64,000 bases of DNA from TPA_inf: Saccharomyces (Eukaryota), in NCBI GenBank assembly GCA_000146045.2, contig BK006938.2, forward strand, positions 960,001 through 1,024,000, in the 5' to 3' direction. Below the pieces are notes generated by a model. It made no database searches. It saw only the letters and a list, made by a program, of their open reading frames with translations, and was not told the origin of the DNA. Position numbers and translations under genes: made by a program. Shown here one piece after another: positions 1 through 57,278 of the stretch. The first letter of the stretch is position 1, and each line of letters starts with the position of its first letter.

Positions 1-613
1 TATTGCGTAATAAAGAGATCTTCCTATCTATAGCACAATTTGAAGTTGAAAAGGCGTATCTAAAATGCTAATACTAAACAAGGCATCATGTTTTTGTCCC
101 ATTCACGTAGCACTGGCGATTTGCTTCCATATTCTTCTGTGTACAATAATAGCTTGGGTGGCTTTTTTCACAATGGGCTCTACGCGAAATTGTCGCAGCC
201 CCCTGTTGGCCGTGCTGTGGGCCATTCTCGAGACTAGAATGAAACAGAAATCTACAAACATGAAAAGGTAGAGTAAAGTCGAGTAAGTAGTAGAAAAGAA
301 AAGTGATATTGGCATACACGATAGCGAAGTTGTTCATATCTATTATCACCAGGCCATTCATTAAAAACTTACCGCTAAATTGAAAAAGAGGCGACTGCCA
401 ACATACTTGCCCTTTTTTTTTTCGCTATTATTAGTGTCCTTTGATTACAAACTACATCCATTCGAAAAGCTTGTAACCAACACTAAAGTCTGTGATTCTA
501 CCCAAATATTTGCTCTCCGTCATTTCTATTCTGTTTGAACTACTGTGCATATATTTTTCTTTTTGTTTCCTACATTTTATTCCCGGCATATCTCGCGATA
601 GGTATATTGAATA

Positions 614-3106: not shown

Positions 3107-3411
3107 CAAATACGCGAGCCCTTGTCTTTCCAATCCAAATAATCCGTTTTTGTTAATGATATGTTATATTTTATCTACTTATACATTTTATCTAAAACAC
3201 TTTCTATTTGGTTAATGACCAACGAGGAAGTTTGTAGCTTCAACACAACTTTAGATCATGTAATAAACGGCATATGCTTTTAAATGCTTTGTTTTGTTTT
3301 TTTCTTTTTTTCCCGCTGTGACAGAAACAATTAAGTTGCGTTAAAAAGGTTCCCTGATAGAAATAAATACGGCTAAATTAAATAAACTACTACATAATCC
3401 TACAACATCAA

Positions 3412-3861
3412 ATGCCTGTAGATCAAGAAAAATTAGCTAAGCTGCACAAGTTATCAGCAGCAAACAAAGTTGGTGGTACCAGAAGGAAAATAAACAAGAA
3501 AGGTAATTTATATAATAACAATGACAAGGATAATACCAAGTTACAAGCTGAACTTCATAAACTGCATCCAATGACCATTGAAAACGTTGCCGAAGCAAAT
3601 TTTTTCAAAAAGAATGGCAAGGTTTTACATTTTAACAGTGCAGTTGTACAGATTGCCCCTCAATGCAATCTCACAATGATTCATGGCCAACCGAAAGAGA
3701 ATACACTTAATGGGCTGTATCCGAGCGTAGCCTCTCAATTAGGTAGCCAAGAACTTGAGTATTTGACAGGTTTGGCTCATAACCTAGAAAATGAACAGAC
3801 GGTGCTCGACCAGCTGGGCGACAGATGCAGCGAGACAAAACAACAAGTGATGAATAGCTGA
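3412..3861 (+). CDS. BTT1: NAC beta subunit paralog (BTT1, YDR252W), 149 aa
   Basis: MPVDQEKLAKLHKLSAANKVGGTRRK N-terminus and NAC domain, similar to EGD1. 149 aa. Confidence 0.85.
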   Translation: MPVDQEKLAKLHKLSAANKVGGTRRKINKKGNLYNNNDKDNTKLQAELHKLHPMTIENVAEANFFKKNGKVLHFNSAVVQIAPQCNLTMIHGQPKENTLNGLYPSVASQLGSQELEYLTGLAHNLENEQTVLDQLGDRCSETKQQVMNS

Positions 3862-3989
3862 CATAGTTCATAATAATTGCCAGTAAACGTTATAGCTAGT
3901 GGCGAATGTCGAAGTGGAAATGCTATCACATTAATGTTGCAGATGAATATATATTTTCTTATTTGAGAAGATACACGCTATTTACTCTT

Positions 3990-4565
3990 TCAGCCATTAC
4001 TGCTACCATTGTGGTTGTTATCTTGACGATGAACGATGTTGGATTGCTTGACTTTTTTCAGTAATTCATTGATACCCTCACCACCCGCAGTTAGTAATTT
4101 AGTCCTGTTTCTCCTACATGTCAGTGTATCATAATGTCTTTTCAATGCATCTTTCCTTGCAAAACCTTTGCCACATTGAGGACAAATGTTAGGCAATATG
4201 GCGAAGTGTGTCTTTTCGTGCCTTCTCAAATCTGATGATCTTGAAAATTCCAACGAACATTTCGCACATTTAAATCTTTTTTCACCAGTACTATTTCTAC
4301 GATCTTGGGGTTTGCTTTTGCTGGACTTCGGTGGTTTTGGTAATGCGTTTTCCTTTTTAACCTTTATGTTACCGCCTTGACTATTTATATCAACACCATT
4401 TTCTGCCGGTATGAGTGCTGGTTTTTTATTTTGTAACCTGTTTTGCCTATTCCTTACCCTTTCTAATAACTCTTTTATTATAGGATCTATGTTATCTATA
4501 TTTAATGATACATCCACTATTGCTTCTGTAGCCTGTTTGATAAATGCAGCATCCTGATCCTCCAT
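3990..4565 (-). CDS. MET32: C2H2 zinc-finger transcription factor MET32 (YDR253C), 191 aa
   Basis: Two C2H2 fingers (FKCAKCSLEFSRSSDLRRHEKTH; CPQCGKGFARKDALKRH). 191 aa. ATG confirmed at 4563-4565. Confidence 0.8.
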   Translation of the reverse strand: MEDQDAAFIKQATEAIVDVSLNIDNIDPIIKELLERVRNRQNRLQNKKPALIPAENGVDINSQGGNIKVKKENALPKPPKSSKSKPQDRRNSTGEKRFKCAKCSLEFSRSSDLRRHEKTHFAILPNICPQCGKGFARKDALKRHYDTLTCRRNRTKLLTAGGEGINELLKKVKQSNIVHRQDNNHNGSSNG

Positions 4566-5112
4566 TTGGTACTTTTTTGAAATTTATAATACCTCTTGAC
4601 TTTTTTCCACTATATTATTAACAAATTCTTGGCATATGACATGAAACCCTATTCAATTATCCAGATGCATACATATATACCATGGATAGATATGTATATC
4701 TACTATATCTATATATACCTCGTCAATGTAATGAGGAAAGTTCCGAGGGCGACAAAGAGAACAAATATAGTTTTATTTATAATAATGATACAGAACTCAA
4801 GATTATTTCCTGCTTATTTTAAACTAAAAGTATAGCAAGTTCTAACCCACAATCAGGTTCTTTATTATTGTCAAGAAAATATAAACTGTGGCGTACTAAG
4901 CGTACTAAGTAAGGGACGAAAAACCATCACAAAATGTCACGTGCATGTTAGTCCAGTCGGGCAATAGATAGGGACTGTAAATTAAAGTTTATATTGAAAT
5001 AAACAAAGGTAAATGGTAAAAGATTAGAAGCATAGAAAGCATCTGGCGTTATTTTAGCGGGGAAAGATTTTGGTGGATACTATCTTTGACTAGTATATTT
5101 GAGTAGCAATTA

Positions 5113-11807: not shown

Positions 11808-14243
11808 TTACTTTTCAGCTTCCTCTTCAACAACTTCGCCTTCTTCATGATTTGGTAGCACGACAAGCTTAGTATCTTTAACCACCACTCTAACAGTTTC
11901 GCCGTTTCTAATTTGACCTTTTAATAAGAAAGTTGCCATGGAGTTCAAAATCTGTCTATGAATTAATCTATTCAATGGCCTTGCACCATATAATTGATCG
12001 TAGCCTTTGTCAGTTAGCCAATCCTTCGCTTCATCAGTTAAATCAATTTTCATTCTTTTTTCGGCCAAACGATCTTGAATTTCTGCAATTCTAATATCAA
12101 CAATTGACCTCAAAACTTTCTTGGATAGCCTATTGAAAACTAGAATATCATCAATACGATTGATGAACTCAGGTGGATAGGATCTTTTCATTGCTTCGAT
12201 AACTTTATTCTTGGTTGCGGTGTCAATCTTACCATCATCACCCAACTTTGTGTCGTTTAATAAAATATCTTGTCCAATGTTTGAGGTCATCACAATGATC
12301 GTGTTACGGAAATCAACATGATGGCCTAGGGAATCGGTCAGCTTACCTTCATCCAACACTTGCAACAGTAGTTTGGAAACATCGGGGTGCGCTTTTTCAA
12401 ATTCATCAAATAAAACGACAGCATAAGGCTTTCTTCTGACAGCCTCAGTTAATTGGCCACCAGATTCGCTTAAGACGTAACCTGGAGGTGCACCGATTAA
12501 ACGAGAGACAGTATGCTTCTCTTGAAATTCTGACATGTCAAAACGAATCACATTTGATTCGTCATCAAATAGGAATTCAGCTAAAGCCTTGGTCAATTCT
12601 GTTTTACCAGTACCAGTAGGACCTAAGAACATAAAGCTGGCAATAGGTCTCTTTTCACTGGTCAAACCAGCCCTTTGAAGACGTACAGCATCAGAAATAG
12701 CAGCAATGGCCTCGTCTTGGCCAACGACTCTTTCTTTTAAAGAATTTTCCATATACAGTAGGCGGTCCTTGTCGCCTTTCATCACCGTTTCTGTAGGAAT
12801 ACCAGTCATTTTGGCAACAACCTTAGAAATATCGTCAGAAGTAACTGAATCATGAAGTAAATTTACTTTATCTCCGTCCTTACTCTTCTCGCTTAAAGCT
12901 ACCTTCTTCTCCAAGTCAGGAATTCTGGAATATCGCAACTCGGATGCTTTAGTGTAATCACCCTCTCTCTGACACTTTTCCAACTCAATTCTTGCTTGTT
13001 CCAAATTTGCCTTAGCATTTTTGATAGATTCAATTTCAGCTCTTTCAGCGTCCCATATTTTTGTTAATCTGTTTAATTCATCATTTTTCATTTCTAGGTC
13101 CTTTTCCAACGCTTCTCTTCTTTCCACGGAAACAGGGTCGGTCTCTTTCTTTAAAGATTCCAGTTCTATTTGTATTTTCATAATAGCACGATCCAGTTTC
13201 TGTATTTCATCCGGTTTGGATTCATGTTGTAAACGTAGTACAGCACAAGCTTCGTCAACTAGATCAATGGCTTTATCAGGTAGAAACCTGTCTGTTATAT
13301 AACGATTTGAAAGAACTGCAGCAGACACTAAAGCTGTATCAGTGATCCTTACACCATGATGAACCTCGTACCTTTCTTTTAAACCTCTTAGTATAGAAAT
13401 CGTATCGGAGACGCTCGGCTCATTCAATAAGATAGGCTGAAACCTTCTCGATAAAGCCGGATCTTTTTCAATGATTTTGAATTCATCAAGAGTGGTTGCA
13501 GAGATACAACGTAGCCCACGGGCCAGTTTTGGCTTTAAGATGTTAGAAGCATCCATACTACCATCAGTTTTACCTAAGCCAAGCAGCATATGAACTTCAT
13601 CAATGAAAACAATAACCTTACCATTGGCCTTGTCAATTTCTTCTAAAACCTTTTTTAAACGTTCTTCGAATTCACCTCTATATTTGGCGCCAGCAATCAA
13701 AGATCCCAAATCCAAAGCTACTAGATCTTTATCTTTCAACGAGTCAGGGACCTCCCCAGCAACAATTCTTTGAGCTAACCCATCAATAAGGGCGGTTTTA
13801 CCGACACCAGCTCGACCGATCAAACATGGATTATTTTTTGTTCTTCTTGATAAAATTTGAATAGCTCTTGCGATTTCTTCGTCTCTGCCAATGACAGGGT
13901 CTAATTTACCGTCGCGCGCTAATTTTGTCAAGTTTGTACCAAATTGTTCTAAAGCTGGCTTTTCCGGTTGCTGATTGGGATCCATCCTCATTTGGACGTA
14001 CGTTCTTTTGAAATTGGGCAATCCATATGAGCTCTTGAGGGCGCAGGTTGAAATAGCGACTTCATTTAATGCATTTGTTTTTATATCTGATAGAAGTTTA
14101 TTGGCTACTCGAGGTCTTGCATTAAAACTGCAAATAGATCTTTTACACTGTACAATAGTGTATATTCGTGGAGTACTTCGCCTTAATAGTTGCGTTCTCT
14201 GTAAATATTTTTGTATTGGTGCTTTTGTAGCTTGTCTTAACAT
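11808..14243 (-). CDS. HSP78: Mitochondrial ClpB-family disaggregase HSP78 (YDR258C), 811 aa
   Basis: Two AAA+ modules with Walker A motifs (GRAGVGKT and GPTGTGKT). Coiled-coil middle domain. N-terminal basic/hydroxylated presequence. 811 aa. Confidence 0.95.
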
Positions 14244-20973: not shown

Positions 20974-21055
20974 CGACAACTGCAGGACTCGAACCTGCGC
21001 GGGCAAAGCCCAAAAGATTTCTAATCTTTCGCCTTAACCACTCGGCCAAGTTGCC
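20974..21055 (-). tRNA. tS(AGA): tRNA-Ser (anticodon AGA)
   Basis: The reverse complement reads GGCAACTTGGCCGAGTGGTTAAGGCGAAAGATTAGAAATCTTTTGGGCTTTGCCCGCGCAGGTTCGAGTCCTGCAGTTGTCG. It has a long variable arm, a T-loop GGTTCGAGTCC and an AGA anticodon. Confidence 0.9.
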
Positions 21056-21143: not shown

Positions 21144-21170
21144 TGTTGGAATAAAAATCCACTATCGTCT
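21144..21170 (+). repeat. 5' fragment (27 bp) of an older solo delta LTR, split by the Ty2 insertion
   Basis: TGTTGGAATAAAAATCCACTATCGTCT is an LTR start. It continues at 27135-27149 and again at 32643 onward (see findings). Confidence 0.7.
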
Positions 21171-21461
21171 TGTTGGAATAAAAATCAACTATCATCTACT
21201 AACTAGTATTTACGTTACTAGTATATTATCATATACGGTGTTAGAAGATGACGCAAATGATGAGAAATAGTCATCTAAATTAGTGGAAGCTGAAACGCAA
21301 GGATTGATAATGTAATAGGATCAATGAATATTAACATATAAAATGATGATAATAATATTTATAGAATTGTATAGAATTGCAGATTCCCTTTTATGGATTC
21401 CTAAATCCTCGAGGAGAACTTCTAGTATATCTACATACCTAATATTATAGCCTTAATCACA

Positions 21462-22778
21462 ATGGAATCCCAACAATTACATCAAAATCCACATTCTCTA
21501 CATGGTAGCGCCGCTGCTTCGGTTACTTCTAAGGAAGTCCCATCAAATCAAGATCCGTTAGCCGTTTCAGCTTCCAATTTACCGGAATTTGATAGAGATT
21601 CCACTAAGGTTAATTCTCAACAAGAGACAACACCTGGGACATCAGCTGTTCCAGAGAACCATCATCATGTCTCTCCTCAACCTGCTTCAGTACCACCTCC
21701 ACAGAATGGACAGTACCAACAGCACGGCATGATGACCCCAAACAAAGCTATGGCCTCTAACTGGGCACATTACCAACAACCATCTATGATGACGTGTTCA
21801 CATTATCAAACGTCACCTGCGTATTATCAACCGGACCCACACTATCCGCTGCCACAGTATATCCCACCGCTGAGTACTTCCTCACCTGATCCAATCGATT
21901 CACAGAATCAACACTCTGAAGTACCTCAAGCTAAGACAAAGGTGAGAAATAACGTCTTACCACCACACACTTTAACATCAGAAGAAAACTTTTCTACATG
22001 GGTTAAATTTTACATCAGATTTTTGAAGAACTCTAATCTCGGTGACATAATTCCAAATGACCAGGGTGAAATCAAAAGACAAATGACTTATGAAGAACAT
22101 GCGTATATATACAATACCTTCCAAGCATTTGCCCCATTTCATTTATTGCCAACATGGGTAAAACAAATTTTAGAAATTAATTATGCTGACATCCTTACAG
22201 TCCTTTGTAAAAGTGTGTCCAAAATGCAAACTAACAATCAAGAATTAAAGGATTGGATAGCTCTTGCCAACCTTGAGTACGACGGAAGTACATCTGCTGA
22301 TACATTTGAAATTACAGTCAGTACGATCATTCAGAGGCTAAAAGAAAACAATATCAATGTTAGCGACAGATTGGCCTGTCAACTAATACTTAAAGGTCTA
22401 TCCGGTGATTTCAAATACCTACGTAATCAATATCGTACCAAAACGAACATGAAACTTTCCCAATTATTCGCTGAAATTCAATTAATATATGACGAAAATA
22501 AAATCATGAATCTAAATAAACCGTCCCAATACAAACAACACAGCGAATACAAAAATGTTTCTCGCACATCTCCAAACACGACTAACACGAAGGTTACAAG
22601 TCGTAATTATCATAGAACAAATAGTTCAAAACCAAGAGCAGCAAAAGCTCACAATATTGCTACATCCAGTAAATTCTCAAGGGTGAACAATGATCACATT
22701 AATGAATCAACCGTTTCATCACAATACTTAAGCGATGACAACGAACTTAGTCTTAGGCCAGCAACAGAAAGAATCTAA
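21462..22778 (+). CDS. Ty2 TYA (Gag), 438 aa
   Basis: [26 protein letters not shown]... The ATG lies inside the 5' LTR. 438 aa is typical of Ty2 (Ty1 is 440). Confidence 0.9.
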
Positions 22779-25700
22779 GCCAACACGCACAATAGACTCG
22801 AATGACGAACTACCTGATCACCTTCTTATTGATTCAGGAGCTTCGCAAACGCTTGTCAGATCAGCCCATTATTTACACCATGCAACACCCAATTCTGAAA
22901 TAAACATAGTCGATGCTCAAAAACAAGACATTCCTATAAATGCCATTGGTAATCTTCACTTCAACTTTCAGAACGGCACCAAAACATCAATAAAAGCACT
23001 ACACACACCAAACATAGCCTATGATCTATTAAGTTTGAGTGAGCTGGCTAACCAAAATATTACTGCCTGCTTTACCAGAAACACTTTAGAAAGATCGGAT
23101 GGTACAGTACTAGCTCCCATAGTCAAACATGGAGACTTTTACTGGTTATCTAAAAAATACCTAATTCCTTCGCACATTTCAAAGCTAACAATAAACAACG
23201 TCAACAAAAGCAAAAGCGTAAATAAATATCCATATCCGTTAATACATCGAATGCTTGGACATGCTAACTTCCGAAGTATTCAGAAGTCTCTTAAGAAGAA
23301 TGCAGTTACATATTTGAAAGAATCGGATATTGAATGGTCTAACGCTAGCACATATCAATGTCCTGACTGTCTAATCGGCAAAAGCACGAAACATAGGCAT
23401 ATCAAAGGATCACGACTAAAGTACCAAGAATCATATGAGCCTTTTCAGTACTTGCATACCGATATATTTGGTCCTGTACATCACTTACCGAAAAGTGCAC
23501 CTTCTTACTTTATATCGTTTACAGATGAGAAAACCAGATTCCAATGGGTCTACCCATTACACGACCGTCGTGAAGAATCTATCCTCAATGTTTTTACATC
23601 GATATTAGCATTTATTAAGAACCAATTCAATGCTCGCGTTCTAGTTATCCAGATGGATCGTGGCTCCGAGTACACTAACAAAACTCTTCATAAGTTCTTT
23701 ACGAACAGAGGTATTACTGCATGCTATACAACCACGGCAGATTCTAGAGCACACGGTGTCGCTGAACGATTAAATCGTACTTTATTAAACGATTGTCGCA
23801 CACTGCTTCATTGCAGTGGTCTACCAAATCATCTATGGTTCTCAGCAGTCGAATTTTCTACTATAATCAGAAATTCATTAGTCTCACCAAAAAACGATAA
23901 ATCTGCAAGACAACATGCAGGTTTAGCTGGACTGGACATTACTACTATACTACCTTTCGGTCAACCGGTTATAGTTAACAACCATAATCCCGACTCGAAA
24001 ATACATCCTCGTGGCATTCCAGGTTACGCCTTACATCCGTCACGAAACTCTTATGGCTATATTATCTATCTTCCATCATTAAAAAAGACAGTAGATACTA
24101 CCAATTACGTTATATTACAAGACAACCAATCCAAATTGGACCAATTCAATTATGATACACTCACCTTTGATGATGATCTCAATCGTTTAACAGCCCATAA
24201 CCAATCTTTTATTGAACAAAATGAAACGGAGCAGTCATATGATCAAAATACAGAATCTGATCATGACTATCAATCGGAGATTGAAATAAACTCTGATCCT
24301 CTAGTGAACGATTTCTCGTCCCAATCATTGAACCCTTTACAATTAGACAAGGAACCAGTCCAAAAGGTACGTGCACCAAAAGAAGTTGATGCCGACATAT
24401 CTGAATACAATATTCTTCCATCTACTATACGATCTCGTACACCCCATATCATTAATAAAGAGAGTACCGAAATGGGTGGTACCATTGAATCAGATACTAC
24501 TTCACCTAGACACTCGTCTACCTTCACTGCACGAAACCAAAAGCGACCTGGTAGTCCCAACGATATGATTGATTTGACCTCACAGGATAGAGTTAATTAT
24601 GGACTTGAAAACATCAAAACTACACGTTTGGGTGGTACGGAGGAACCATATATTCAACGAAATAGTGATACAAATATCAAATACAGGACTACAAATAGTA
24701 CGCCCTCAATAGATGACCGTTCGTCCAACAGTGAATCCACTACTCCCATCATCTCCATAGAAACAAAGGCTGTATGTGATAATACACCCTCCATTGATAC
24801 GGATCCGCCAGAATATCGATCTTCTGACCATGCGACTCCTAATATAATGCCTGACAAATCCTCAAAAAATGTTACGGCTGATTCTATTCTTGACGACCTC
24901 CCACTTCCTGACTTAACTAATAAATCTCCTACGGACACTTCTGATGTTTCAAAAGATATTCCACACATACACTCTCGTCAGACTAATTCCAGTTTGGGTG
25001 GTATGGATGATTCTAATGTTCTGACTACTACCAAAAGTAAGAAAAGATCATTAGAAGATAATGAAACTGAAATTGAGGTATCCCGAGACACATGGAATAA
25101 TAAGAATATGAGAAGTCTGGAACCACCAAGATCGAAGAAACGCATAAATTTAATTGCAGCAATAAAAGGAGTGAAATCGATCAAACCAGTTCGAACGACC
25201 TTAAGATATGATGAAGCAATTACATATAATAAAGACAACAAAGAAAAAGACAGATATGTTGAAGCTTATCATAAAGAAATTAGCCAACTATTGAAAATGA
25301 ACACTTGGGATACAAACAAATATTATGATAGAAATGACATAGATCCTAAAAAAGTAATAAACTCAATGTTTATATTTAACAAGAAACGTGATGGTACACA
25401 CAAAGCTAGATTTGTTGCAAGAGGCGACATTCAACACCCCGATACATATGATTCTGATATGCAATCCAATACCGTACATCACTATGCACTGATGACGTCA
25501 TTGTCAATCGCATTAGACAATGACTATTATATCACACAGCTGGACATATCCTCTGCTTACTTATATGCTGATATCAAAGAAGAATTATACATAAGACCTC
25601 CACCACATTTAGGTTTGAATGATAAGTTACTACGTTTGAGAAAATCACTCTATGGTTTGAAACAAAGTGGTGCAAACTGGTATGAAACCATTAAATCATA

Positions 25701-26775
25701 TTTAATAAATTGTTGCGACATGCAAGAAGTTCGCGGATGGTCATGCGTATTTAAGAATAGTCAAGTAACAATTTGCTTATTCGTTGATGATATGATATTA
25801 TTCAGCAAAGACTTAAATGCAAATAAGAAAATCATAACAACACTCAAGAAACAATACGATACAAAGATAATAAATCTGGGTGAAGGTGATAACGAAATTC
25901 AGTACGACATACTTGGATTAGAGATCAAATATCAAAGAAGCAAGTACATGAAATTAGGTATGGAAAAATCCTTGACAGAAAAATTACCCAAACTAAACGT
26001 ACCTTTGAACCCAAAAGGAAAGAAACTTAGAGCTCCAGGTCAACCAGGTCATTATATAGACCAGGATGAACTAGAAATAGATGAAGATGAATACAAAGAG
26101 AAAGTGCATGAAATGCAAAAGTTGATTGGTCTAGCTTCATATGTTGGATATAAATTTAGATTTGACTTACTATACTACATCAACACACTTGCTCAACATA
26201 TACTATTCCCCTCTAGGCAAGTTTTAGACATGACATATGAATTGATACAGTTCATATGGAATACGAGAGATAAGCAATTAATATGGCACAAAAGCAAACC
26301 TGTTAAGCCAACAAATAAATTAGTTGTTATAAGCGATGCATCGTATGGTAACCAACCGTATTATAAATCACAAATTGGCAACATATATTTACTTAATGGA
26401 AAAGTGATTGGAGGAAAGTCGACAAAGGCTTCGTTAACATGCACTTCAACTACAGAAGCAGAAATACACGCAGTCAGTGAAGCTATACCGCTATTGAATA
26501 ACCTCAGTCACCTTGTGCAAGAACTTAACAAGAAACCAATTATTAAAGGCTTACTTACTGATAGTAGATCAACGATCAGTATAATTAAGTCTACAAATGA
26601 AGAGAAATTTAGAAACAGATTTTTTGGCACAAAGGCAATGAGACTTAGAGATGAAGTATCAGGTAATAATTTATACGTATACTACATCGAGACCAAGATG
26701 AACATTGCTGATGTGATGACAAAACCTCTTCCGATAAAAACATTTAAACTATTAACTAACAAATGGATTCATTAG
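22752..26775 (+). CDS. Ty2 TYB (Pol: protease-integrase-RT-RNase H), expressed as a TYA-TYB fusion by +1 frameshift
   Basis: CTT-AGG-C slippery heptamer at 22752-22758 in the TYA frame. The +1 frame stays open to 26775. Integrase HHCC/DDE and RT YVDD (FVDDM) motifs are present. Confidence 0.85.
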
Positions 26776-27134
26776 ATCTATTACATTATGGGTGGTATGT
26801 TGGAATAAAAATCAACTATCATCTACTAACTAGTATTTACGTTACTAGTATATTATCATATACGGTGTTAGAAGATGACGCAAATGATGAGAAATAGTCA
26901 TCTAAATTAGTGGAAGCTGAAACGCAAGGATTGATAATGTAATAGGATCAATGAATATTAACATATAAAATGATGATAATAATATTTATAGAATTGTATA
27001 GAATTGCAGATTCCCTTTTATGGATTCCTAAATCCTCGAGGAGAACTTCTAGTATATCTACATACCTAATATTATAGCCTTAATCACAATGGAATCCCAA
27101 CAATTACATCAAAATCCACATTCTCTACACGTCT

Positions 27135-27149
27135 ATCAACTAATAGTTA
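27135..27149 (+). repeat. Middle fragment (15 bp) of the older solo delta, lying between the Ty2 and Ty1 insertions
   Basis: ATCAACTAATAGTTA continues the LTR sequence that was interrupted at 21170. Confidence 0.65.
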
Positions 27150-27533
27150 TGAGATATATGTGGGTAATTAGATAATTGTTGGGATTCCATTGTTGATAAA
27201 GGCTATAATATTAGGTATACAGAATATACTAGAAGTTCTCCTCGAGGATTTAGGAATCCATAAAAGGGAATCTGCAATTCTACACAATTCTATAAATATT
27301 ATTATCATCGTTTTATATGTTAATATTCATTGATCCTATTACATTATCAATCCTTGCGTTTCAGCTTCCACTAATTTAGATGACTATTTCTCATCATTTG
27401 CGTCATCTTCTAACACCGTATATGATAATATACTAGTAACGTAAATACTAGTTAGTAGATGATAGTTGATTTTTATTCCAACATACCACCCATAATGTAA
27501 TAGATCTAATGAATCCATTTGTTTGTTAATAGT

Positions 27534-30500
27534 TTAAATGTTTTTATCGGAAGAGGTTTTGTGTTTGTGCCATATTAATTGTTTATCTCTAGTGTCCCAC
27601 ATGAATTGTATTAACTCATATGTCATGTCTAAAACTTGCCTAGAGGGGAATAGTATATGTTGAGCAAGTGTGTTGATGTAGTATAGTAAGTCAAATCTAA
27701 ATTTATATCCAACATATGAAGCTAGACCAATCAACTTTTGCATTTCATGTACCTTCTCTTTGTATTCATCTTCATCTATTTCTAGTTCATCCTGGTCTAT
27801 ATAAAGACCTGGTTGACCTGGAGCGCTAAGTTTTCTTCCTTTTGGATTCAAAGGTACGTTTAATTTGGGTATTTTCTCAGTTAATGAGTTTTCCATACCT
27901 AATTTCATGTATTTACCTCTTTGATATTTGATTTCTAAGCCAAGTATGTCATATTGAATTTCCTCATCACTTTCGCCTAGATTTATAATCTTGGTGTCGT
28001 ATTGCATCTTAAGCTTCTCTATAATTCTTTTGTTTGAATTTAGATTTTTGCTAAACAATACCATATCATCTACGAATAAACAAATTGTCACTTGACTGTT
28101 TTTAAATACGCATGACCATCCACGAACTTCTTCCATACCACATTGTTGTATCAGGTATGATTTGATAGTTTCGTACCAGTTCGCTCCACTTTGTTTCAAT
28201 CCATAAAGTGATTTCTTCAAACGTATCAACTTATCATTCATTCCTAAATGTGGTGGAGGTCTTATGTATAATTCTTCTTTGATGTCTGCATACAAATATG
28301 CCGAAGATATGTCTAATTGTGTAATATAGTAGTTATTGTCTAATGCAAGTGACAGGGATGTCATTAATGCATAGTGATGTACGGTATTGGATTGCATGCC
28401 TGAGTCGTAAGTGTCAGGATGCTGAATATCACCTCTTGCAACAAATCTAGCTTTATGAGTACCGTCACGTTTCTTGTTGAAGATAAACATTGAGTTTATT
28501 ACTCTTTTAGGGTCTATTTCTTTTCTGTCATAATATTCGTCAGTGTCCCAAGTTTTCATCTTCAACAGTTGATTGACTTCTTTGTGGTATGCCTCGATAT
28601 ATTTTTCTTTTTCTTTAATATCTTTATTATAGGTGATTGCCTCATCGTATCGTAAGGTTGTCCGTATTGGTTTGATTGATTTTACTGCTTTTACAGCTGC
28701 AATCAGGTGAATTCGTTTCTTCGATCTCGGAGGTTCTAAACTACGCATATTCTTAGTATTCCATGTGTCTCGTGATACCTTAATTTCAGTTTCATTATCT
28801 TCTAATGATCTTTTCTTACTGTTGATAGTAGTATAGGCATTAGAGTCACCAATACCACCCAAACTGGAATTAGTTTGACGAGAATTTATCGGTGGGAGTT
28901 CTTTAAATGGGTCAGGGAATTCGGTAGGAGATTCTGGAGGTAGATCAGGGAGTGGGAGATCAGCGATGATAGATTCCTCGGTATTCTGTTCAGAAACAGT
29001 AGTTGGCGTTTTGATAGGAACAATATTGTGCGATGAATTATTTTCCGGTGGAGAAGCATCGATTGAAGGTGAACGGTGTATAATCCTTTTCTCAGTCTCT
29101 TGGTCACTTATCTGCGGAACAGTTTTGTTGTTGGTACCACCCGTACTGGATATTGGTACGTTTGTATGATTAGTCTCATTTTCACTGTACGAGTCTGAGT
29201 GTCTGAAATCTTTAGATTTACTGGCGTGCGACGACTCATGTGTGTTAGATTGGGACATGGGAGCAAGTAAAGGAACATTTAATTTATGCATACCACCCGA
29301 ACCGGTACTCTCGATATTGGAAATTTGGGGGGTGCTAGATCTCTTCTTTGATGGAAGAATATTAGATTCAGATATGTTGGGGTCAACTTCTCTGGGTGCG
29401 CGAATATTGGTTTTAGAAACACGTTTCGAATCTTCAGTATGAGTTGACGGAGGTGTGGAATCGGTTGGACTCACAGCTTTTGAAAGGACATTTCTCGGTT
29501 GCTCAGGATGTAGTTCAATGTCGGATTGGAAGTCATGGTCAGATTCTATGTTAAGATCATTGGATTCTTGGATCTCATTTGACGCAATGAACGAATGATA
29601 TGAAGCAGTTAAACGGTTTAAGTCTTCATCGAAAGTGAGTGCGTCGTAATTGAATTGATCTAATCTGGATTCCTTGCCCTGAAGAATAACATAGTTAGTT
29701 GTATCTACTGTCTTCTTTAAGGATGGAAGATAGATGATATATCCATAAGAGTTTCGAGACGGATGTAGAGCGTAGCCTGGGATGCCACGAGGATGTATTT
29801 TGGAGTTAGGGTTGTGATCATTGACGATAACAGGTTGACCGAAAGGTAACAAAGTACTGATATCAAGTCCTGCCAAGCCAGCATGTTGTCTTGCAGATTT
29901 TTTGCTTTTAGGTGAAGCTAGTGAATTTCTCACAATAGTAGAAAATTCGATTGCAGAGAACCATAAATGGTTCGGTAAACCACTACATTGCAGTTGAGTA
30001 CGGCAGTCATCTAATAAGGTACGGTTTAGCCGTTCAGCGACTCCATGTGCTCGGGAATCCGCTGTGGTTGTATAGCATGGAGTTATACCATTTTTTTCAA
30101 GGAATTTATGGAGAGTTCTGTTAGTATACTCAGAACCACGGTCCATTTGTATAACCAAGACACTGGCCTGAAACTGGTTTTTAATAAAAGCTAGTATCGT
30201 AGTAAAAACATCGAGGATAGAGTCCTCGCGACGGTCGTGTAATGGATAAACCCAACGGAATTTTGTTGTCTCATCAGTAAATGAGATGAAATAGGATGGT
30301 GCACTATTTGGTAGGTTGTGAACTGGACCAAATATGTCAGTATGTAGGTATTGAAAGGGTTCGTATGAATTTTGGTATTTTAGTCGTGAACCTTTGATAT
30401 GTCTGTGTTTGGTGCTTTTGCCGATTAAACAATCAGGACATTGATAGTCAATAGCACTAGACCAGTCGACATCTGATTCGTTAAAATACGTGATGGTGTT

Positions 30501-31046
30501 ATTTTTAAGTGAGTATCGAATTGTCTGTGCATTGGCATGCGCAAGCATTCGATGAATGAAAGGATAAGGATATTTGCGTGTACTTTCACTTGTATGGACA
30601 TTATTGATGGTGGGTACGGAGATATTTGATGGAAGCAAGTACTTTTTAGATACCCAGTAAAAGTCTCCATATTTTACGATAGGTGCAAGTACAGTGCCGT
30701 CAGACCGTTCTAAGACGTTTTTGGTAAAGCATGCTGTGATATCTACTGCAGCCAATTCATTCAAACTGAGTAAGTCATAGGCTATGTTAGGAGTGTGCAA
30801 TACCTTTATTGATGTTTTGGTGTTGTCCTGGAAGTGAAATTGTAGGTCACCAATAGCGTTAATTGGTATATTTCTTTTTTGAGCATCAACTACGTTTATG
30901 TCAGGATTAGATGATGCTGAGTGTATGTGATGAGCAGATCTTATAAGGGTTCGTGATGCTCCTGAATCGAGAAGGAGGTGTCCAGGGAGTTCATCATCAG
31001 AATGATTAGTATGATTTACTGTAGATTCAGTAAGTTTCTGGCCTAA
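27534..31046 (-). pseudogene. Ty1 TYB, truncated: an internal ~430-bp deletion removes the RNase H region and shifts the frame
   Basis: CTTAGGC frameshift heptamer at 31040-31046. The frame is open to a stop at 27534, ending ...[14 protein letters not shown]. The intact Ty2 copy continues ...[26 protein letters not shown]... for about 170 more residues. The TTG at 30800 used by the ORF track is not the real start. Confidence 0.8.
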
Positions 31047-32349
31047 GATGAAGGTCGTGCTTATTGTTCAATTGAATCGGTTCAGTAGTTGATTTACTGA
31101 TGGAATCGTTGTCCGTGCTGGGAGAGTTATTAGATGTGGATACATTGTGAGCCCTGGCTGTTTTCGATTTCGAATTATTTGTTTTTTGAGGATTCCGAGC
31201 TATAACTTTGGGTTTGGTTGTATTCGTATAGCTGCGAGAATCATTCTTCTCATCACTCGGATTTCTCCTGTAATTAGGTTTACTGTTTCTCGATCCCTGT
31301 TGTTCTTCATAAATAGCATGGATATCTAAGAACAGTTCAGCGACTGTCATATTTAGATGTCGATGACGTGTGTAGCGTAAAAATTTATATTCGCCAGATA
31401 GACCTCTCATAATTAATTGGCATGCGACCTTGTTATTGATATGAATGCCATTATTGTTCAGTCTGTCGATAATGTTTGTGACTTTTGTTTCAAATGCATC
31501 TGCAGGTGTACTGCCATTATATTGCAAATTTGCCAGGGTCACAATGTCGTTTGCCTCTTGGGTATCAGATTGCATTTTTTCAATACTTTTGGAAAGAATT
31601 TTCATGATATCCGTATAATCAACGGATAGGATGTCTTTGACCCAGGTAGGTAGGAATTGAGAGGGAGCAAATATTTGAAAAGTGTTATACAAGAAGGTGA
31701 GTTCATCATCAGTGATCTGACGTACGGGTTTTCCGTTTACTGTCGGAATAATACCACCGAGATTCGAGTTTTGTAAAAATTTGATGTATGTTTTAACCCA
31801 ATTTGGAAAGTCATTAGGTGAGGTTAACATTGGTGGTGGTCTGACATATTTTTTAGTGGATGTCATATCAGAGTCCGCTGAGGATGAATCAGTAAATGTA
31901 TTACCTGACTCAGGTGATGGAGTGCTCAGAGGCGTTCCAACTGATGATGGATACTGCGGAAACTGTGATTGTGGCCCAGGTGGAAAGTACATAGGCGACA
32001 TTTGATAAGGTGTATACGGAATCATAGATGGGTGTCCGTAAAATGACCAACCAGATGGATTGGCTTGGTTTTGGGTCATCATGCACTGCTGTGGGTACGG
32101 CCCATTCTGTGGAGGTGGTACTGAAGCAGGTTGAGGAGAGGCATGATGGGGGTTCTCTGGAACAGCTGATGAAGCAGGTGTTGTTGTCTGTTGAGAGTTA
32201 GCCTTAGTGGAAGCCTTCTCACATTCTTCTGTTTTGGAAGCTGAAACGTCTAACGGATCTTGATTTGTGTGGACTTCCTTAGAAGTAACCGAAGCACAGG
32301 CGCTACCATGAGAAATGGGTGAATGTTGAGATAATTGTTGGGATTCCAT
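31027..32349 (-). CDS. Ty1 TYA (Gag), 440 aa
   Basis: [42 protein letters not shown]... 440 aa. The ATG lies inside the 5' LTR. Confidence 0.9.
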
Positions 32350-32642
32350 TGTTGATAAAGGCTATAATATTAGGTATACAGAATATACTAGAAGTTCTCC
32401 TCAAGGATTTAGGAATCCATAAAAGGGAATCTGCAATTCTACACAATTCTATAAATATTATTATCATCGTTTTATATGTTAATATTCATTGATCCTATTA
32501 CATTATCAATCCTTGCGTTTCAGCTTCCACTAATTTAGATGACTATTTCTCATCATTTGCGTCATCTTCTAACACCGTATATGATAATATACTAGTAACG
32601 TAAATACTAGTTAGTAGATGATAGTTGATTTTTATTCCAACA

Positions 32643-32826
32643 AGTTATATTATCAATATATTATCATATACGGTGTTAAGATGATGACATAAGTTATGAG
32701 AAGCTATCATCGAAGTTAGAGGAAGCTGAAGTGCAAGAATTGTTTCATATGTGATTTATGAACATTTAGCATGATTTATTGTCATATTGAGGTATGGTAT
32801 GTCGATGATAAAACAAATCCAACAAT
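32643..32826 (+). repeat. 3' portion of the older solo delta LTR (diverged and truncated), directly upstream of tG(GCC)
   Basis: AGTTATATTATCAATATATTATCATATACGGTGTTAAGATGATGACATAAGTTATGAGAAGCT... is colinear with the delta-variant sequence after the 15-bp piece at 27135-27149. It ends in ...AAATCCAACAATT. Confidence 0.7.
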
Positions 32827-32831
32827 TGTGA

Positions 32832-32902
32832 GCGCAAGTGGTTTAGTGGTAAAATCCAACGTTGCCATCGTTGGGCCCCCGGTTCGATTCCGGGCTTGCG
32901 CA
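32832..32902 (+). tRNA. tG(GCC): tRNA-Gly (anticodon GCC)
   Basis: GCGCAAGTGGTTTAGTGGTAAAATCCAACGTTGCCATCGTTGGGCCCCCGGTTCGATTCCGGGCTTGCGCA, followed by a T6 Pol III terminator. Confidence 0.92.
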
Positions 32903-33133
32903 CTTTTTTAGCAACTATTAGCGATCAATATGAAGGGTTTAGAGACTAGGTGCCTGCCTCGCCTACTCAGCATTCGTTCAGTCAATATTTTATATCACCG
33001 TTAATAATGATTAAGCAGTTTTTTTTGTTAATAAATCCGGTCATCGGGCTAACTAATCTTCAAGAACAACTAGACGGTCATCCCCTTTTGCTTCATAACT
33101 TCTCCTTATAATATAAAAACTTACAAAACGACC

Positions 33134-45674: not shown

Positions 45675-48600
45675 ATGAGAGAAGTGATACTTGCTGTACA
45701 TGGAATGACATGCAGCGCCTGTACTAATACAATCAATACGCAGTTACGAGCTTTAAAGGGTGTAACAAAATGTGATATTAGTTTAGTGACTAATGAGTGC
45801 CAGGTGACATACGATAACGAGGTTACCGCCGATTCTATTAAGGAAATTATAGAGGATTGTGGATTTGACTGTGAGATACTAAGAGATTCTGAAATTACAG
45901 CCATAAGTACGAAGGAAGGACTACTGAGTGTACAAGGTATGACCTGTGGGTCTTGTGTTTCTACAGTCACCAAACAAGTGGAAGGCATTGAGGGTGTTGA
46001 ATCGGTAGTCGTTTCCTTGGTAACGGAAGAGTGCCATGTTATTTATGAACCGTCCAAGACAACGCTAGAAACCGCCAGAGAAATGATTGAAGACTGTGGA
46101 TTTGACTCAAATATTATTATGGATGGCAACGGGAATGCAGACATGACCGAAAAAACGGTGATCTTGAAAGTAACTAAGGCTTTCGAGGACGAATCCCCAC
46201 TCATACTTTCTTCAGTAAGCGAAAGGTTTCAATTTTTGTTAGACCTAGGTGTAAAATCGATAGAAATTTCTGATGATATGCACACACTCACCATAAAATA
46301 CTGTTGTAACGAACTCGGCATTAGAGATTTATTGAGGCACCTTGAGAGGACCGGATATAAATTCACTGTATTTTCCAATTTAGATAATACTACCCAGTTA
46401 AGGCTTCTCTCTAAAGAGGACGAGATAAGATTCTGGAAAAAAAACAGCATAAAATCCACCCTTTTGGCTATAATATGTATGCTATTGTATATGATTGTCC
46501 CTATGATGTGGCCAACAATTGTTCAGGACCGCATATTCCCTTACAAAGAAACCTCCTTTGTTAGAGGTCTGTTCTACAGAGATATTTTGGGTGTAATATT
46601 GGCAAGCTATATTCAGTTCAGCGTTGGTTTTTACTTTTACAAGGCAGCATGGGCATCTTTAAAGCACGGTTCAGGAACCATGGATACACTAGTTTGTGTT
46701 TCCACTACTTGTGCATACACATTTTCTGTGTTTTCTTTAGTTCACAATATGTTCCATCCCTCAAGTACTGGCAAACTCCCAAGGATCGTTTTCGACACAT
46801 CAATCATGATCATTTCATATATTTCCATCGGGAAATATTTGGAAACTTTAGCTAAATCACAAACATCAACCGCACTTTCTAAATTAATTCAGCTCACTCC
46901 ATCGGTGTGTTCAATTATATCTGACGTGGAGCGGAATGAAACCAAGGAAATTCCCATAGAATTATTGCAAGTGAACGATATAGTGGAGATTAAACCAGGG
47001 ATGAAAATTCCTGCTGATGGCATCATAACAAGAGGTGAATCTGAAATTGACGAGTCGTTAATGACAGGCGAATCCATTTTGGTGCCCAAGAAAACTGGTT
47101 TTCCGGTTATTGCTGGTTCTGTTAATGGACCTGGACATTTCTACTTCAGAACTACTACCGTTGGGGAGGAAACTAAATTAGCAAATATTATCAAGGTAAT
47201 GAAAGAAGCACAATTGAGTAAAGCTCCCATTCAGGGGTATGCAGATTATTTAGCCTCTATTTTTGTTCCGGGGATCCTAATTTTGGCAGTATTGACTTTC
47301 TTTATTTGGTGTTTTATTTTAAACATCTCGGCTAATCCTCCCGTCGCTTTCACCGCAAATACTAAGGCTGATAATTTTTTTATTTGCTTACAAACTGCTA
47401 CTTCTGTTGTCATCGTCGCATGCCCATGTGCATTGGGACTTGCCACGCCGACTGCTATAATGGTGGGTACAGGGGTTGGAGCTCAGAATGGTGTCTTAAT
47501 AAAGGGCGGAGAAGTATTGGAAAAATTCAATAGTATTACTACTTTTGTTTTTGATAAAACAGGTACCTTAACTACAGGTTTTATGGTTGTGAAAAAGTTC
47601 CTTAAAGATTCAAATTGGGTTGGAAACGTGGATGAAGACGAAGTTCTCGCCTGTATAAAAGCAACGGAATCCATTAGTGACCATCCAGTTTCGAAAGCAA
47701 TTATACGTTATTGTGATGGTTTGAACTGTAATAAGGCTTTAAATGCCGTTGTTTTAGAAAGCGAATACGTGCTTGGAAAGGGAATAGTCTCAAAGTGTCA
47801 AGTTAATGGAAATACTTATGATATTTGTATTGGGAACGAGGCGCTGATTTTGGAGGATGCATTAAAAAAATCCGGATTTATTAACAGTAATGTCGACCAA
47901 GGAAACACTGTATCATACGTATCAGTAAACGGGCATGTGTTTGGCTTGTTCGAGATTAATGATGAAGTTAAACATGATTCTTACGCAACAGTTCAGTATC
48001 TACAAAGAAATGGATATGAAACGTATATGATTACTGGCGATAATAACTCAGCAGCAAAAAGAGTCGCTAGAGAAGTAGGTATAAGCTTCGAAAATGTTTA
48101 CAGCGATGTGTCACCCACAGGCAAATGTGATCTCGTGAAAAAAATTCAAGATAAAGAAGGTAATAACAAGGTTGCTGTTGTTGGCGATGGCATTAACGAC
48201 GCTCCCGCTTTAGCACTGAGTGATCTAGGTATTGCCATTTCAACAGGTACGGAGATTGCTATTGAAGCAGCTGATATTGTTATACTGTGCGGTAATGATC
48301 TGAATACTAATAGTTTGAGAGGACTGGCCAACGCCATCGATATTTCACTAAAAACGTTCAAAAGAATAAAGCTGAATTTGTTCTGGGCACTTTGCTATAA
48401 TATATTCATGATTCCGATTGCTATGGGTGTGCTCATTCCTTGGGGCATAACTCTTCCTCCAATGCTCGCCGGTTTAGCGATGGCATTCAGCTCGGTCAGT
48501 GTCGTTCTAAGTTCATTGATGTTGAAGAAGTGGACTCCACCGGATATTGAATCACATGGGATTTCAGATTTCAAGTCCAAATTTTCGATTGGGAATTTTT

Positions 48601-48689
48601 GGTCAAGGCTTTTTTCTACGCGGGCTATTGCAGGTGAGCAAGACATAGAATCACAGGCCGGACTAATGTCAAACGAAGAAGTCTTGTAA
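45675..48689 (+). CDS. CCC2: Cu(+)-transporting P1B-type ATPase CCC2 (YDR270W), 1004 aa
   Basis: Two N-terminal HMA domains (GMTCSAC, GMTCGSC). TGES actuator motif. CPC in TM6 (CPCALGLATP). DKTGTLT phosphorylation site. GDGINDAPAL hinge. Confidence 0.95.
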   Translation: MREVILAVHGMTCSACTNTINTQLRALKGVTKCDISLVTNECQVTYDNEVTADSIKEIIEDCGFDCEILRDSEITAISTKEGLLSVQGMTCGSCVSTVTKQVEGIEGVESVVVSLVTEECHVIYEPSKTTLETAREMIEDCGFDSNIIMDGNGNADMTEKTVILKVTKAFEDESPLILSSVSERFQFLLDLGVKSIEISDDMHTLTIKYCCNELGIRDLLRHLERTGYKFTVFSNLDNTTQLRLLSKEDEIRFWKKNSIKSTLLAIICMLLYMIVPMMWPTIVQDRIFPYKETSFVRGLFYRDILGVILASYIQFSVGFYFYKAAWASLKHGSGTMDTLVCVSTTCAYTFSVFSLVHNMFHPSSTGKLPRIVFDTSIMIISYISIGKYLETLAKSQTSTALSKLIQLTPSVCSIISDVERNETKEIPIELLQVNDIVEIKPGMKIPADGIITRGESEIDESLMTGESILVPKKTGFPVIAGSVNGPGHFYFRTTTVGEETKLANIIKVMKEAQLSKAPIQGYADYLASIFVPGILILAVLTFFIWCFILNISANPPVAFTANTKADNFFICLQTATSVVIVACPCALGLATPTAIMVGTGVGAQNGVLIKGGEVLEKFNSITTFVFDKTGTLTTGFMVVKKFLKDSNWVGNVDEDEVLACIKATESISDHPVSKAIIRYCDGLNCNKALNAVVLESEYVLGKGIVSKCQVNGNTYDICIGNEALILEDALKKSGFINSNVDQGNTVSYVSVNGHVFGLFEINDEVKHDSYATVQYLQRNGYETYMITGDNNSAAKRVAREVGISFENVYSDVSPTGKCDLVKKIQDKEGNNKVAVVGDGINDAPALALSDLGIAISTGTEIAIEAADIVILCGNDLNTNSLRGLANAIDISLKTFKRIKLNLFWALCYNIFMIPIAMGVLIPWGITLPPMLAGLAMAFSSVSVVLSSLMLKKWTPPDIESHGISDFKSKFSIGNFWSRLFSTRAIAGEQDIESQAGLMSNEEVL

Positions 48690-57206: not shown

Positions 57207-57278
57207 CTCCGAAGCGGGGAGTCGAACCCCGGTCTCCACGGTGAGAACGTGATGTGATAGCCGTTACACTACATCGGA
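57207..57278 (-). tRNA. tE(CUC): tRNA-Glu (anticodon CUC)
   Basis: The reverse complement reads TCCGATGTAGTGTAACGGCTATCACATCACGTTCTCACCGTGGAGACCGGGGTTCGACTCCCCGCTTCGGAG. Anticodon loop TTCTCAC, T-loop GGTTCGACTCC. Confidence 0.9.

Follow-up and report, generated by a model that had tools for sequence, protein, structure and literature searches.

Discordant LTRs of the hybrid Ty1 element YDRCTy1-3 mark a recombinant tract at its 5' end, probably acquired by ectopic gene conversion

Introduction

Ectopic gene conversion between dispersed Ty elements of Saccharomyces cerevisiae was reportedly described by Roeder and Fink in 1982 and by Kupiec and Petes in 1988. In retroviruses and LTR retrotransposons, both LTRs are regenerated as U3 (from the 3' parent), R and U5 (from the 5' parent) and are identical at integration. 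Heterozygous virus-like particles, in which reverse transcription can switch templates, have been named as the source of hybrid Ty1/2 elements (Jordan & McDonald 1998; PMC4022208; PMC3511429). In these hybrids, the 3' segment of TYB and the 240-bp U3 are derived from Ty2, and R-U5, gag and most of pol are derived from Ty1 (PMC4022208). Recombination among the reference Ty1 copies comprises at least 41 events in 32 elements (PMC3511429). At 981-992 kb, a Ty2 and a Ty1 that lie close together in inverted orientation constitute HS4, the strongest mitotic recombination hotspot of its chromosome arm (St Charles & Petes 2013, PMC3616911). This pair is present in S288C and W303 and missing in YJM789 (PMC3616911).

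The Ty1 member of the pair, YDRCTy1-3, resembles the products of ectopic Ty conversion in that an internal stretch of a few hundred to approximately 1200 bp appears to have been replaced non-reciprocally, with the flanks and the target-site duplication unchanged. Unlike the ectopic conversions that have been observed, this event is read back from its product, and a cDNA donor is equally possible. YDRCTy1-3 also resembles the Ty1/2 hybrids, since it carries the Ty2-derived 3' TYB segment and 240-bp U3 and is a mosaic of two hybrid lineages. However, a template-switching product has two identical LTRs; template switching explains the internal mosaic of YDRCTy1-3 but not the disagreement of its LTRs. 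With regard to HS4, the locus is identical, with the same tail-to-tail arrangement, a spacer of ~20-25 bp and known recombinogenic lesions (PMC3616911). The breaks at HS4 occur at the centre of the quasi-palindrome, the location of the two 3' LTRs, and are repaired from the homologue, whereas the tract described here lies at the far 5' end of YDRCTy1-3.

Results

Genomic context of the Ty pair

The stretch of DNA analysed (the window; 64 kb) was assigned to S. cerevisiae chromosome IV from its flanking HSP78-like and CCC2-like genes. The following features were located (positions are those of the window).

11808-14243, ORF of 811 aa, HSP78/ClpB/Hsp104-like, based on a match to HSP78
20974-21055, tRNA-Ser(AGA), on one side of the old solo delta
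21144-21170, 27130/27135-27149 and 32643/32648-~32745, pieces of the old solo delta, from reading of the sequence
21171..27129, plus strand, full-length Ty2 element YDRWTy2-3, 5959 bp, LTRs at 21171-21502 and 26798-27129
27130..27149, plus strand, 20-bp spacer between Ty2 and Ty1, a fragment of the older solo delta
27150..32642, minus strand, Ty1/Ty2 hybrid retrotransposon YDRCTy1-3 (chrIV_u9; Carr et al. 2012), 5493 bp
32832-32903, tRNA-Gly(GCC), on the other side of the old solo delta
45675-48689, ORF of 1004 aa, CCC2-like copper P-type ATPase

The N-terminus of the CCC2-like protein matches the 72-residue copper-ATPase chain 1fvq, which we take to be yeast Ccc2a. In the yeast gene order, HSP78 and CCC2 presumably lie on either side of the chromosome IV pair YDRWTy2-3/YDRCTy1-3. 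The flanking genes, together with the published description of the hotspot, identify the pair in the window as YDRWTy2-3/YDRCTy1-3 at the HS4 locus (PMC3616911). The Ty2 (plus strand) and the Ty1 (minus strand) are arranged tail-to-tail, 20 bp apart, and were both inserted into one older solo delta. BLAST detected this delta at 32657-32742, and the rebuilt old delta (TGTTGGAATAAAAATCCACTATCGTCTATCAACTAATAGTTATATTATCAATAT...) matches canonical deltas in contigs L002 and L004.

YDRWTy2-3 is bordered by a perfect 5-bp target-site duplication (CGTCT, at 21166-70 and 27130-34), and its reading frames are open (TYA, 438 aa; TYB, 1346 aa). Exact alignment of its LTRs revealed identity at 332 of 332 positions. 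A first-pass annotation of the window, made from the letters alone, had judged these LTRs identical and the element young and possibly competent; both readings are supported, the second on account of the identical LTRs, the intact duplication, the open TYA and TYB frames and the absence of the element from YJM789 (PMC3616911).

Structure and classification of YDRCTy1-3

Analysis of YDRCTy1-3 revealed the following components.

32642..32309, minus strand, 5' LTR, 334 bp, with T at position 240 and a Q-type U5 end (...ATCTCAACATTCACCCATTTCTCA)
27483..27150, minus strand, 3' LTR, 334 bp, with C at position 240 and an N-type U5 end (...ATCTAATTACCCACATATATCTCA)
32299..32308, minus strand, primer-binding site TGGTAGCGCC (tRNA-iMet), directly 3' of the 5' LTR
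31027..32349, minus strand, intact gag (TYA) ORF, 440 aa, starting at position 294 inside the 5' LTR
27534..30800, minus strand, shortened pol (TYB) frame, with a deletion junction at 27563/27564

Both LTRs run TGTTGG...TCTCA, beginning with TG and finishing with CA, and a perfect 5-bp target-site duplication (AGTTA) is present at 27145-49 and 32643-47. The polypurine tract GGGTGGTA occupies the expected position adjoining the 3' LTR. The gag product belongs to Pfam family PF01021 (E = 2e-234), and identical copies of the protein are encoded on 16 other public contigs, which are short, collapsed and devoid of LTR pairs. The +1 frameshift site CTTAGGC is located at element position 1596. Pfam analysis of pol predicted the rve and RVT_2 domains, and an RNase H domain was absent from the Pfam result for this element. 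YDRCTy1-3 is a defective member of its family because a 425-bp out-of-frame deletion in pol has removed the RNase H region.

Comparison with the adjacent Ty2 in 100-bp windows revealed 96-100% identity from position ~4817-4850 through U3 and 22-89% identity upstream. In the hybrid-clade alignment, YDRCTy1-3 is placed as chrIV_u9. Judged by its sequence, the element is an LTR retrotransposon of the Ty1 type (Ty1/copia, Pseudoviridae) and belongs to the Ty1/Ty2 hybrid subfamily, as one among 18 reference hybrids. Ty1 RNA has a 53-nt 5' UTR and carries the primer-binding site at RNA nt 95-104 (PMC5454406). Since the ATG is located at LTR position 294 and the primer-binding site at 335-344, transcription starts at LTR position 241, in line with the 240-bp U3 (PMC4022208). 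U3 ends with position 240, one base upstream of this start.

The LTRs of YDRCTy1-3 differ in a narrow part of U5 and at position 240

Exact alignment of the two LTRs of YDRCTy1-3 revealed 325 matching positions out of 334, no indels and nine differing sites. With the T of TGTTGG counted as position 1, one of these is LTR position 240, with C in the 3' LTR (27244) and T in the 5' LTR (32403), which on the sense strand gives CTCGAG versus CTTGAG. The other eight sites (315, 317, 318, 320, 321, 325, 326 and 329) fall in a 15-bp patch of U5.

27155..27169, minus strand, 15-bp U5 patch in the 3' LTR (LTR 329..315), containing eight of the nine LTR differences
32314..32328, minus strand, 15-bp U5 patch in the 5' LTR, corresponding to Ty1 RNA nt 75-89 and gag codons 8-12

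The 5' variant encodes QHSPI at gag codons 8-12; the 3' variant, if it were used, would encode NYPHI. Positions 1-239 and 241-314 and the terminal TCTCA are identical in both LTRs. None of 200,000 random placements of nine differences brought eight of them together within a single 15-bp window (analytic bound, ~5e-8), and uniform drift is excluded on this basis (p < 1e-7).

The first-pass annotation had stated that the Ty1 LTRs differ at the U5 end, and the strings that it quoted at 27150 and 32309 are correct, as are the match of the remaining LTR sequence and the CTCGAGG/CTCAAGG SNP, now assigned to position 240. Its count of about 10 terminal mismatches was right in placing them at the end of the LTR, and the exact number is eight within 15 bp. 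Neither identical ends nor scattered differences were found in the alignment. The preference of that annotation for recombination, conversion or a chimera over decay is borne out by the clustering and by the presence of every differing base as an allele in another reference Ty1 lineage.

The LTR pair of YDRCTy1-3 thus violates the rule of LTR identity over positions 240-329, and a further event is needed to account for it. The neighbouring Ty2 obeys this rule at all 332 positions. Within YDRCTy1-3, the U5 of the 3' LTR equals the U5 of the 5' LTR of another reference hybrid, chrIV_u7, as inheritance through RNA predicts.

The 5' LTR difference is part of a longer recombinant tract

For full-length comparison, three hybrids (chrIV_u10, chrIV_u7 and chrIV_i2, the last being YDRCTy1-1) out of ~31 other reference Ty1 copies were used, with sequences taken from the supplement of PMC3511429. 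The 3' LTR of YDRCTy1-3 is identical at 334 of 334 positions to both chrIV_i2 LTRs and to the chrIV_u7 5' LTR. The 5' LTR is identical to chrIV_i2 and chrIV_u7 at positions 1-239 and to the chrIV_u10 5' LTR at positions 240-334. Over the first 1600 nt, YDRCTy1-3 differs from chrIV_i2 solely at position 240, at the eight U5 sites, at positions 412, 413, 414, 421 and 425 and at a private site, 1361. All 14 clustered sites (nine in the LTR and five in gag) have the chrIV_u10 state. Accordingly, the mismatches over element positions 240-425 amount to 0/186 relative to chrIV_u10 and to 14/186 relative to each of chrIV_i2 and chrIV_u7. The nearest informative sites outside this stretch, 174 and 1384, have the chrIV_i2 state, and the flanks are of the chrIV_i2 type (sites 11-174 and 1384-1595). 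These results delimit the tract as follows.

32218..32403, minus strand, minimum recombinant tract, element positions 240-425, 186 bp, all 14 sites in the chrIV_u10 state
31260..32468, minus strand, maximum tract, element positions 175-1383, 1209 bp, bounded by the chrIV_i2-state sites 174 and 1384

The minimum tract spans the last base of U3, R, U5, the primer-binding site and gag codons 1-44. Its left boundary lies within positions 175-239, the last 65 bp of U3, and its right boundary lies within positions 426-1383. On this comparison, the terminal 25-bp patch, the position-240 SNP and the gag sites 412-425 are one single tract of 186-1209 bp. The description of a sharply bounded patch of ~25 bp at the LTR terminus, given in the first-pass annotation, is not sustained, as the tract measures at least 186 bp and includes position 240 and gag sites 412-425. 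The patch looks sharply bounded because a comparison of LTR with LTR ends at the LTR end. The tract would have altered two groups of gag residues, 8-12 (NYPHI to QHSPI) and 40-44 (IQEYD to TEECE). A contiguous block in the donor state with recipient-lineage states on both sides, as found here, is the pattern of gene conversion. The exact donor was not found among the three hybrids compared; chrIV_u10 differs at 1361, within the maximum tract, and at its bounding site 1384.

The rest of the element is also a mosaic. Positions 1595-2674 are chrIV_u7-like, positions 2675-4893 are identical to chrIV_u10 (0/2219 mismatches), and the part from 5119 to the end is chrIV_i2-like. Scoring of 103 informative sites as chrIV_u10-like or chrIV_i2-like revealed seven runs, which 0 of 100,000 permutations matched; the two labels are relative, because YDRCTy1-3 is a mosaic elsewhere too.

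U5 variants and T240 in other copies

The occurrence of the variants was surveyed in the Ty1 LTR alignments of all reference copies, taken from the supplement of Carr, Bensasson & Bergman 2012 (PMC3511429). These alignments contain 17 N-type and 27 Q-type ends. The first-pass annotation had proposed that the U5 variant be sought in other deltas as a possible conversion donor. No further copy of either U5 variant is present inside the 64-kb window. The window holds no donor, its remaining delta pieces being old fragments (32657-32742 and 58402-58517), and IMG/VR viral contigs gave 0 matches. The neighbouring Ty2 was considered as a conversion donor and rejected, as its U5 (...ACATCAAAATCCACATTCTCTACA) fits neither Ty1 U5 variant.

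The N-type U5 adjoins a primer-binding site in four public contigs (L011, L012, L031 and L039), and a protein search with the alternative, N-type gag N-terminus returned 12 short fragments, showing that such gag starts exist. These two observations indicate that the N-type U5 is a normal 5' U5 allele. The first-pass annotation had treated the 3' end at 27150-27180 as the odd copy; instead, the 5' LTR is most likely the altered one and the 3' variant (...CTAATTACCCACATATATCTCA) the ancestral one. Being ancestral and common elsewhere, the N-type 3' end needs no donor.

Fourteen Ty1 LTRs and 6 of the 30 young Ty2 LTRs have T at position 240 (CCTTGAGG). This base is present in 0 of 20 old solo LTRs that have the matching string. 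One hybrid subgroup (chrXVI_u34, chrXII_u21 and chrIV_u10) has T240 in both LTRs. The idea that T240 is a private, non-templated base was at first backed by a metagenome scan, whose sites, for the most part in old solo deltas, had C in 25 cases, A in one and T in none. The S288C LTR alignments then refuted it, given the 14 Ty1 and six young Ty2 LTRs that carry this base and its presence at both ends of several hybrids.

LTR pairs of other copies were compared in the same way. The pair of chrIV_u10 differs at 325 and 326, that of chrIV_u7 differs at 329, and that of chrIV_i2 shows 0 differences. In the alignment file, disagreement solely in the U5 patch was recorded for the hybrids chrVII_u12, chrXII_u22 and, by inference, chrXII_u21, and for the canonical Ty1 copies chrXV_u31, chrIV_i4 and chrXVI_u35. 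Such disagreements occur in both polarities, and at least eight short mosaic alleles of the patch were distinguished. In approximately half of the readable reference Ty1 LTR pairs, disagreement is confined to the U5 patch, and U3 disagreement was seen in no readable reference pair. Clustering of disagreement in this patch is expected if recombination shows only where donors differ.

Discussion

The difference between the LTRs of YDRCTy1-3 is best read as ectopic gene conversion of the 5' LTR from a Ty1 copy of the chrIV_u10 lineage, genomic or cDNA, a reading that we consider probable on the pattern of shared sites. The element would have integrated with identical LTRs of the chrIV_i2 type, with a Ty2-like U3, C240 and a U5 ending in ...CTAATTACCCACATATATCTCA; its sister copy YDRCTy1-1 has this LTR at both ends. 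The internal mosaic may have arisen earlier, when reverse transcription switched between co-packaged RNA templates, which is the accepted way in which Ty1/2 hybrids form (PMC4022208). Later, non-reciprocal homologous recombination would have replaced 186-1209 bp at the 5' end. The putative donor is a hybrid Ty1/Ty2 of the lineage represented by chrIV_u10, either a chromosomal copy or a full-length cDNA. The converted stretch would reach from the last 65 bp of U3 via R, U5 and the primer-binding site to a point in gag and would have introduced T240, the eight U5 substitutions and the five gag substitutions.

The 5' LTR is probably the altered copy, and the 3' LTR probably keeps the original state. 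The 3' LTR may have been spared by the location of its U5 end at the very margin of Ty homology. T240 is missing from the Ty1 RNA 5' end yet present in the 5' LTR DNA of chrIV_u10-type copies, and its location upstream of the RNA start therefore favours a DNA donor. Both parental LTR types occur in one genome. Both copies of the target-site duplication are intact, which argues against reciprocal exchange or a crossover with another locus. The timing after insertion, as proposed in the first-pass annotation, is likely, though not proven. A role of the HS4 hotspot in the event was considered and is unsupported, as the tract lies ~5 kb away from the palindrome centre.

The strongest competing explanation, although an unlikely one, is reverse transcription on two different co-packaged Ty1 RNAs, so that the LTRs would never have been symmetric. 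By one route, the minus strand would be completed on a chrIV_u10-type RNA through the primer-binding site, U5 and R to the 5' end; the 5' LTR would then be a heteroduplex with plus-strand strong-stop DNA and would afterwards be resolved to the chrIV_u10 type. By a second route, intermolecular plus-strand transfer would take place between two minus strands. In agreement with such an origin, the chrIV_u10-type tract is continuous with chrIV_u10-type gag and ends at 240, within one base of the RNA start at 241. T240 would result if a non-templated A were attached to the minus strand. The seven-run structure of the element is also a multi-block mosaic of the kind that template switching would give, many reference Ty1 LTR pairs disagree in R-U5 alone and never in U3, and hybrid Ty1/2 elements have themselves been attributed to heterozygous particles (PMC4022208). 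However, T240 is the allele of chrIV_u10-type 5' LTR DNA and lies outside the RNA 5' end, so this origin requires either that a non-templated base was added by coincidence or that transcription began further upstream. The absence of U3 discordance is expected under conversion as well, since the copies of a subgroup have almost the same U3. Under the standard model and, reportedly, in the classic experiments with marked Ty elements, the LTRs are identical, which counts against an origin in reverse transcription. No direct evidence was found for Ty1 read-through or for intermolecular plus-strand transfer.

Several points nevertheless weigh against conversion of the 5' LTR. No exact donor emerged from the three hybrids compared, one round of reverse transcription could yield the same final structure, and LTR disagreement confined to the patch in approximately half of the pairs is frequent for a process that is usually quoted as rare. 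It is conceivable, although doubtful, that disagreement over the last ~20 bp of U5 is routinely made during Ty1 reverse transcription in particles with two different RNAs. This could proceed by intermolecular plus-strand transfer or by minus-strand read-through of the U5-R of the second RNA, which would leave the 5' LTR as a heteroduplex. The frequency of patch-only disagreement and the many short mosaic alleles of the patch are compatible with such an origin.

It is improbable that a Ty1 cDNA or LTR circle entered a chrIV_i2-type solo LTR by a homologous crossover or replaced a resident element. The left LTR would then combine resident-left with incoming-right sequence and the right LTR incoming-left with resident-right sequence. 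Such an exchange would partition T240/Q-type at the 5' end and C240/N-type at the 3' end in one step and would preserve the old target-site duplication. Integrase-independent recombination of cDNA is known in yeast. It needs, however, an incoming LTR that combines a group-1 U3 with T240 and a Q-type U5, unseen in the other copies examined, and positions 426-1594 are chrIV_i2-like again, which fits a patch better than a single crossover.

Slightly less credible still is alteration of the 3' LTR, with T240 and the Q-type U5 originally at both ends and the 3' end converted by a chrIV_i2-type donor over a tract that starts upstream of element position 5119 and reaches the LTR tip. The chrIV_i2-type block does start upstream of the LTR, at site 5119, and the chrIV_u10-like block stops at 4893. 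Against this, the tract must reach the last informative base, 6 bp from the element end, with no homology beyond, and an ancestral LTR with a group-1 U3, T240 and a Q-type U5 is again required and not observed elsewhere. The gag differences at 412-425 and the subsequent reversion to the chrIV_i2 type are left unexplained.

An assembly artefact, in which reads of different Ty1 copies were merged in the reference, is very improbable. In its favour, Ty elements are the hardest repeats of the yeast genome, and the tract matches another lineage perfectly. However, the 3' LTR variant adjoins unique flank, the 5' variant is continuous with intact gag, and several other elements show similar discordance. 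The sacCer2 alignment published in 2012 already has the discordance of YDRCTy1-3 (chrIV_u9_5/_3), although it does not represent an independent sequencing. Gradual decay through independent point mutations since insertion has nothing in its favour beyond the fact that the LTRs differ and is refuted by the clustering of eight of the nine differences in 15 bp (p < 1e-7), by the zero changes in the remaining LTR and by the fact that each difference is a pre-existing allele of other copies.

Recombination from one Ty copy to another is well known in yeast, which makes this a genuine but unremarkable case; events of this kind, as well as the locus and its sequences, had already been published or were part of the reference genome. 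If LTR disagreement at the U5 end did arise in reverse transcription, the LTRs of many Ty1 copies would differ from the outset, contrary to the textbook rule behind LTR-based dating, and only then would the U5 pattern be of interest to specialists in Ty1 and retroviral replication. For YDRCTy1-3 itself, LTR divergence is unusable for dating, because its nine differences suggest an old element, yet it is young and missing in YJM789. With conversion of the 5' LTR as the preferred reading, the gag N-terminus of YDRCTy1-3 would be a transplant from another lineage, and the discordant LTR pair of this reference-genome Ty1 would be explained by well-documented recombination between Ty elements.

Disagreement between LTRs of reference Ty1 elements

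Analysis of the two LTRs of the Ty1 copy revealed nine differences. Eight of these lie in a 15-bp U5 patch (LTR positions 315 to 329), and the ninth is at position 240. The survey of LTR pairs covered the readable reference Ty1 pairs in supplement file 9 (parts 7, 8, and 13) of PMC3511429, together with three other Ty1/Ty2 hybrids (chrIV_u10, chrIV_u7, and chrIV_i2). Disagreement between the 5' and 3' LTRs limited to positions 315 to 329 was detected in roughly 9 of the 16 pairs, about half, and occurred in both polarities. No U3 disagreement was found within these discordant pairs. The patch comes in eight or more short, mosaic allelic forms, e.g., CTCAACATTCACATATTTCTCA, CTAATTATTCACCCATTTCTCA, and CTAATTACCCACAAATTTCTCA.

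Position 240, the last U3 base, was located in both LTRs, and its alleles were surveyed in supplement files 7 to 11 of PMC3511429.

Window 32403: LTR position 240, 5' LTR
Window 27244: LTR position 240, 3' LTR

A C-to-T exchange at this base destroys the XhoI site. T is recurrent among young LTRs of canonical Ty1, Ty1/2 hybrid, and Ty2 elements and was absent from every old solo LTR counted in that supplement. One metagenome delta (L036) carries A.

Two public contigs that encode a gag identical to that of the Ty1 copy (L009 and L010) have GAGGAGAAC at position 1 and begin exactly where Ty1 transcription has been mapped to start, at LTR position 241. These contigs may be RNA derived.

A further delta in the window is degraded.

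Window 58402-58517: delta fragment, approximately 80% identity, R-U5 part only

This fragment lies approximately 1.1 kb from tRNA-Glu(CTC) at 57207-57278, and its U5 end is of the older ...AAAATTCGCCTATTTCTCA type.

Mosaic structure and pol deletion of the Ty1 copy

Comparison with chrIV_u7 and chrIV_u10 revealed that the Ty1 interior is a mosaic of blocks matching different hybrids.

Window 31048-29969 (-), element 1595-2674: chrIV_u7-like block of approximately 1.1 kb, 1 mismatch to chrIV_u7 and 9 to chrIV_u10
Window 29968-27750 (-), element 2675-4893: 2.2-kb block identical to chrIV_u10, 0/2219 mismatches
Window 27563/27564 (-), element 5079/5080: pol deletion junction

The switch to Ty2-like sequence occurs approximately 400 bp further upstream in chrIV_u7 and chrIV_i2 than in the Ty1 copy and chrIV_u10. 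The hybrids therefore have at least two distinct Ty1/Ty2 junctions.

The pol gene lacks the bulk of its RNase H region owing to a 425-bp out-of-frame deletion. The deletion junction sits between short ACAAA(A) repeats and shows one odd base, C versus G in other copies. This copy cannot be autonomous.

Insertion target and recombination hotspot

One older solo delta, itself truncated at about 32745, holds both the Ty2 and Ty1 insertions, 15 bp apart and within its first ~45 bp.

Window 21144-21170, 27130-27149, and 32643-32745: older solo delta pieces

With the two elements and a single copy of each target-site duplication taken out, the remaining pieces rebuild a canonical delta start, TGTTGGAATAAAAATCCACTATCGTCTATCAACTAATAGTTATATTATCAATAT... 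The tail-to-tail pair with its 20-bp spacer (window 21171-32642) is the published mitotic recombination hotspot HS4 (PMC3616911). The 3' LTRs form its quasi-palindrome centre and share 97.7% identity across the first ~310 bp.

The recurrent T at position 240 could reflect either a repeated reverse transcription error at the U3/R junction or one allele spread by recombination.
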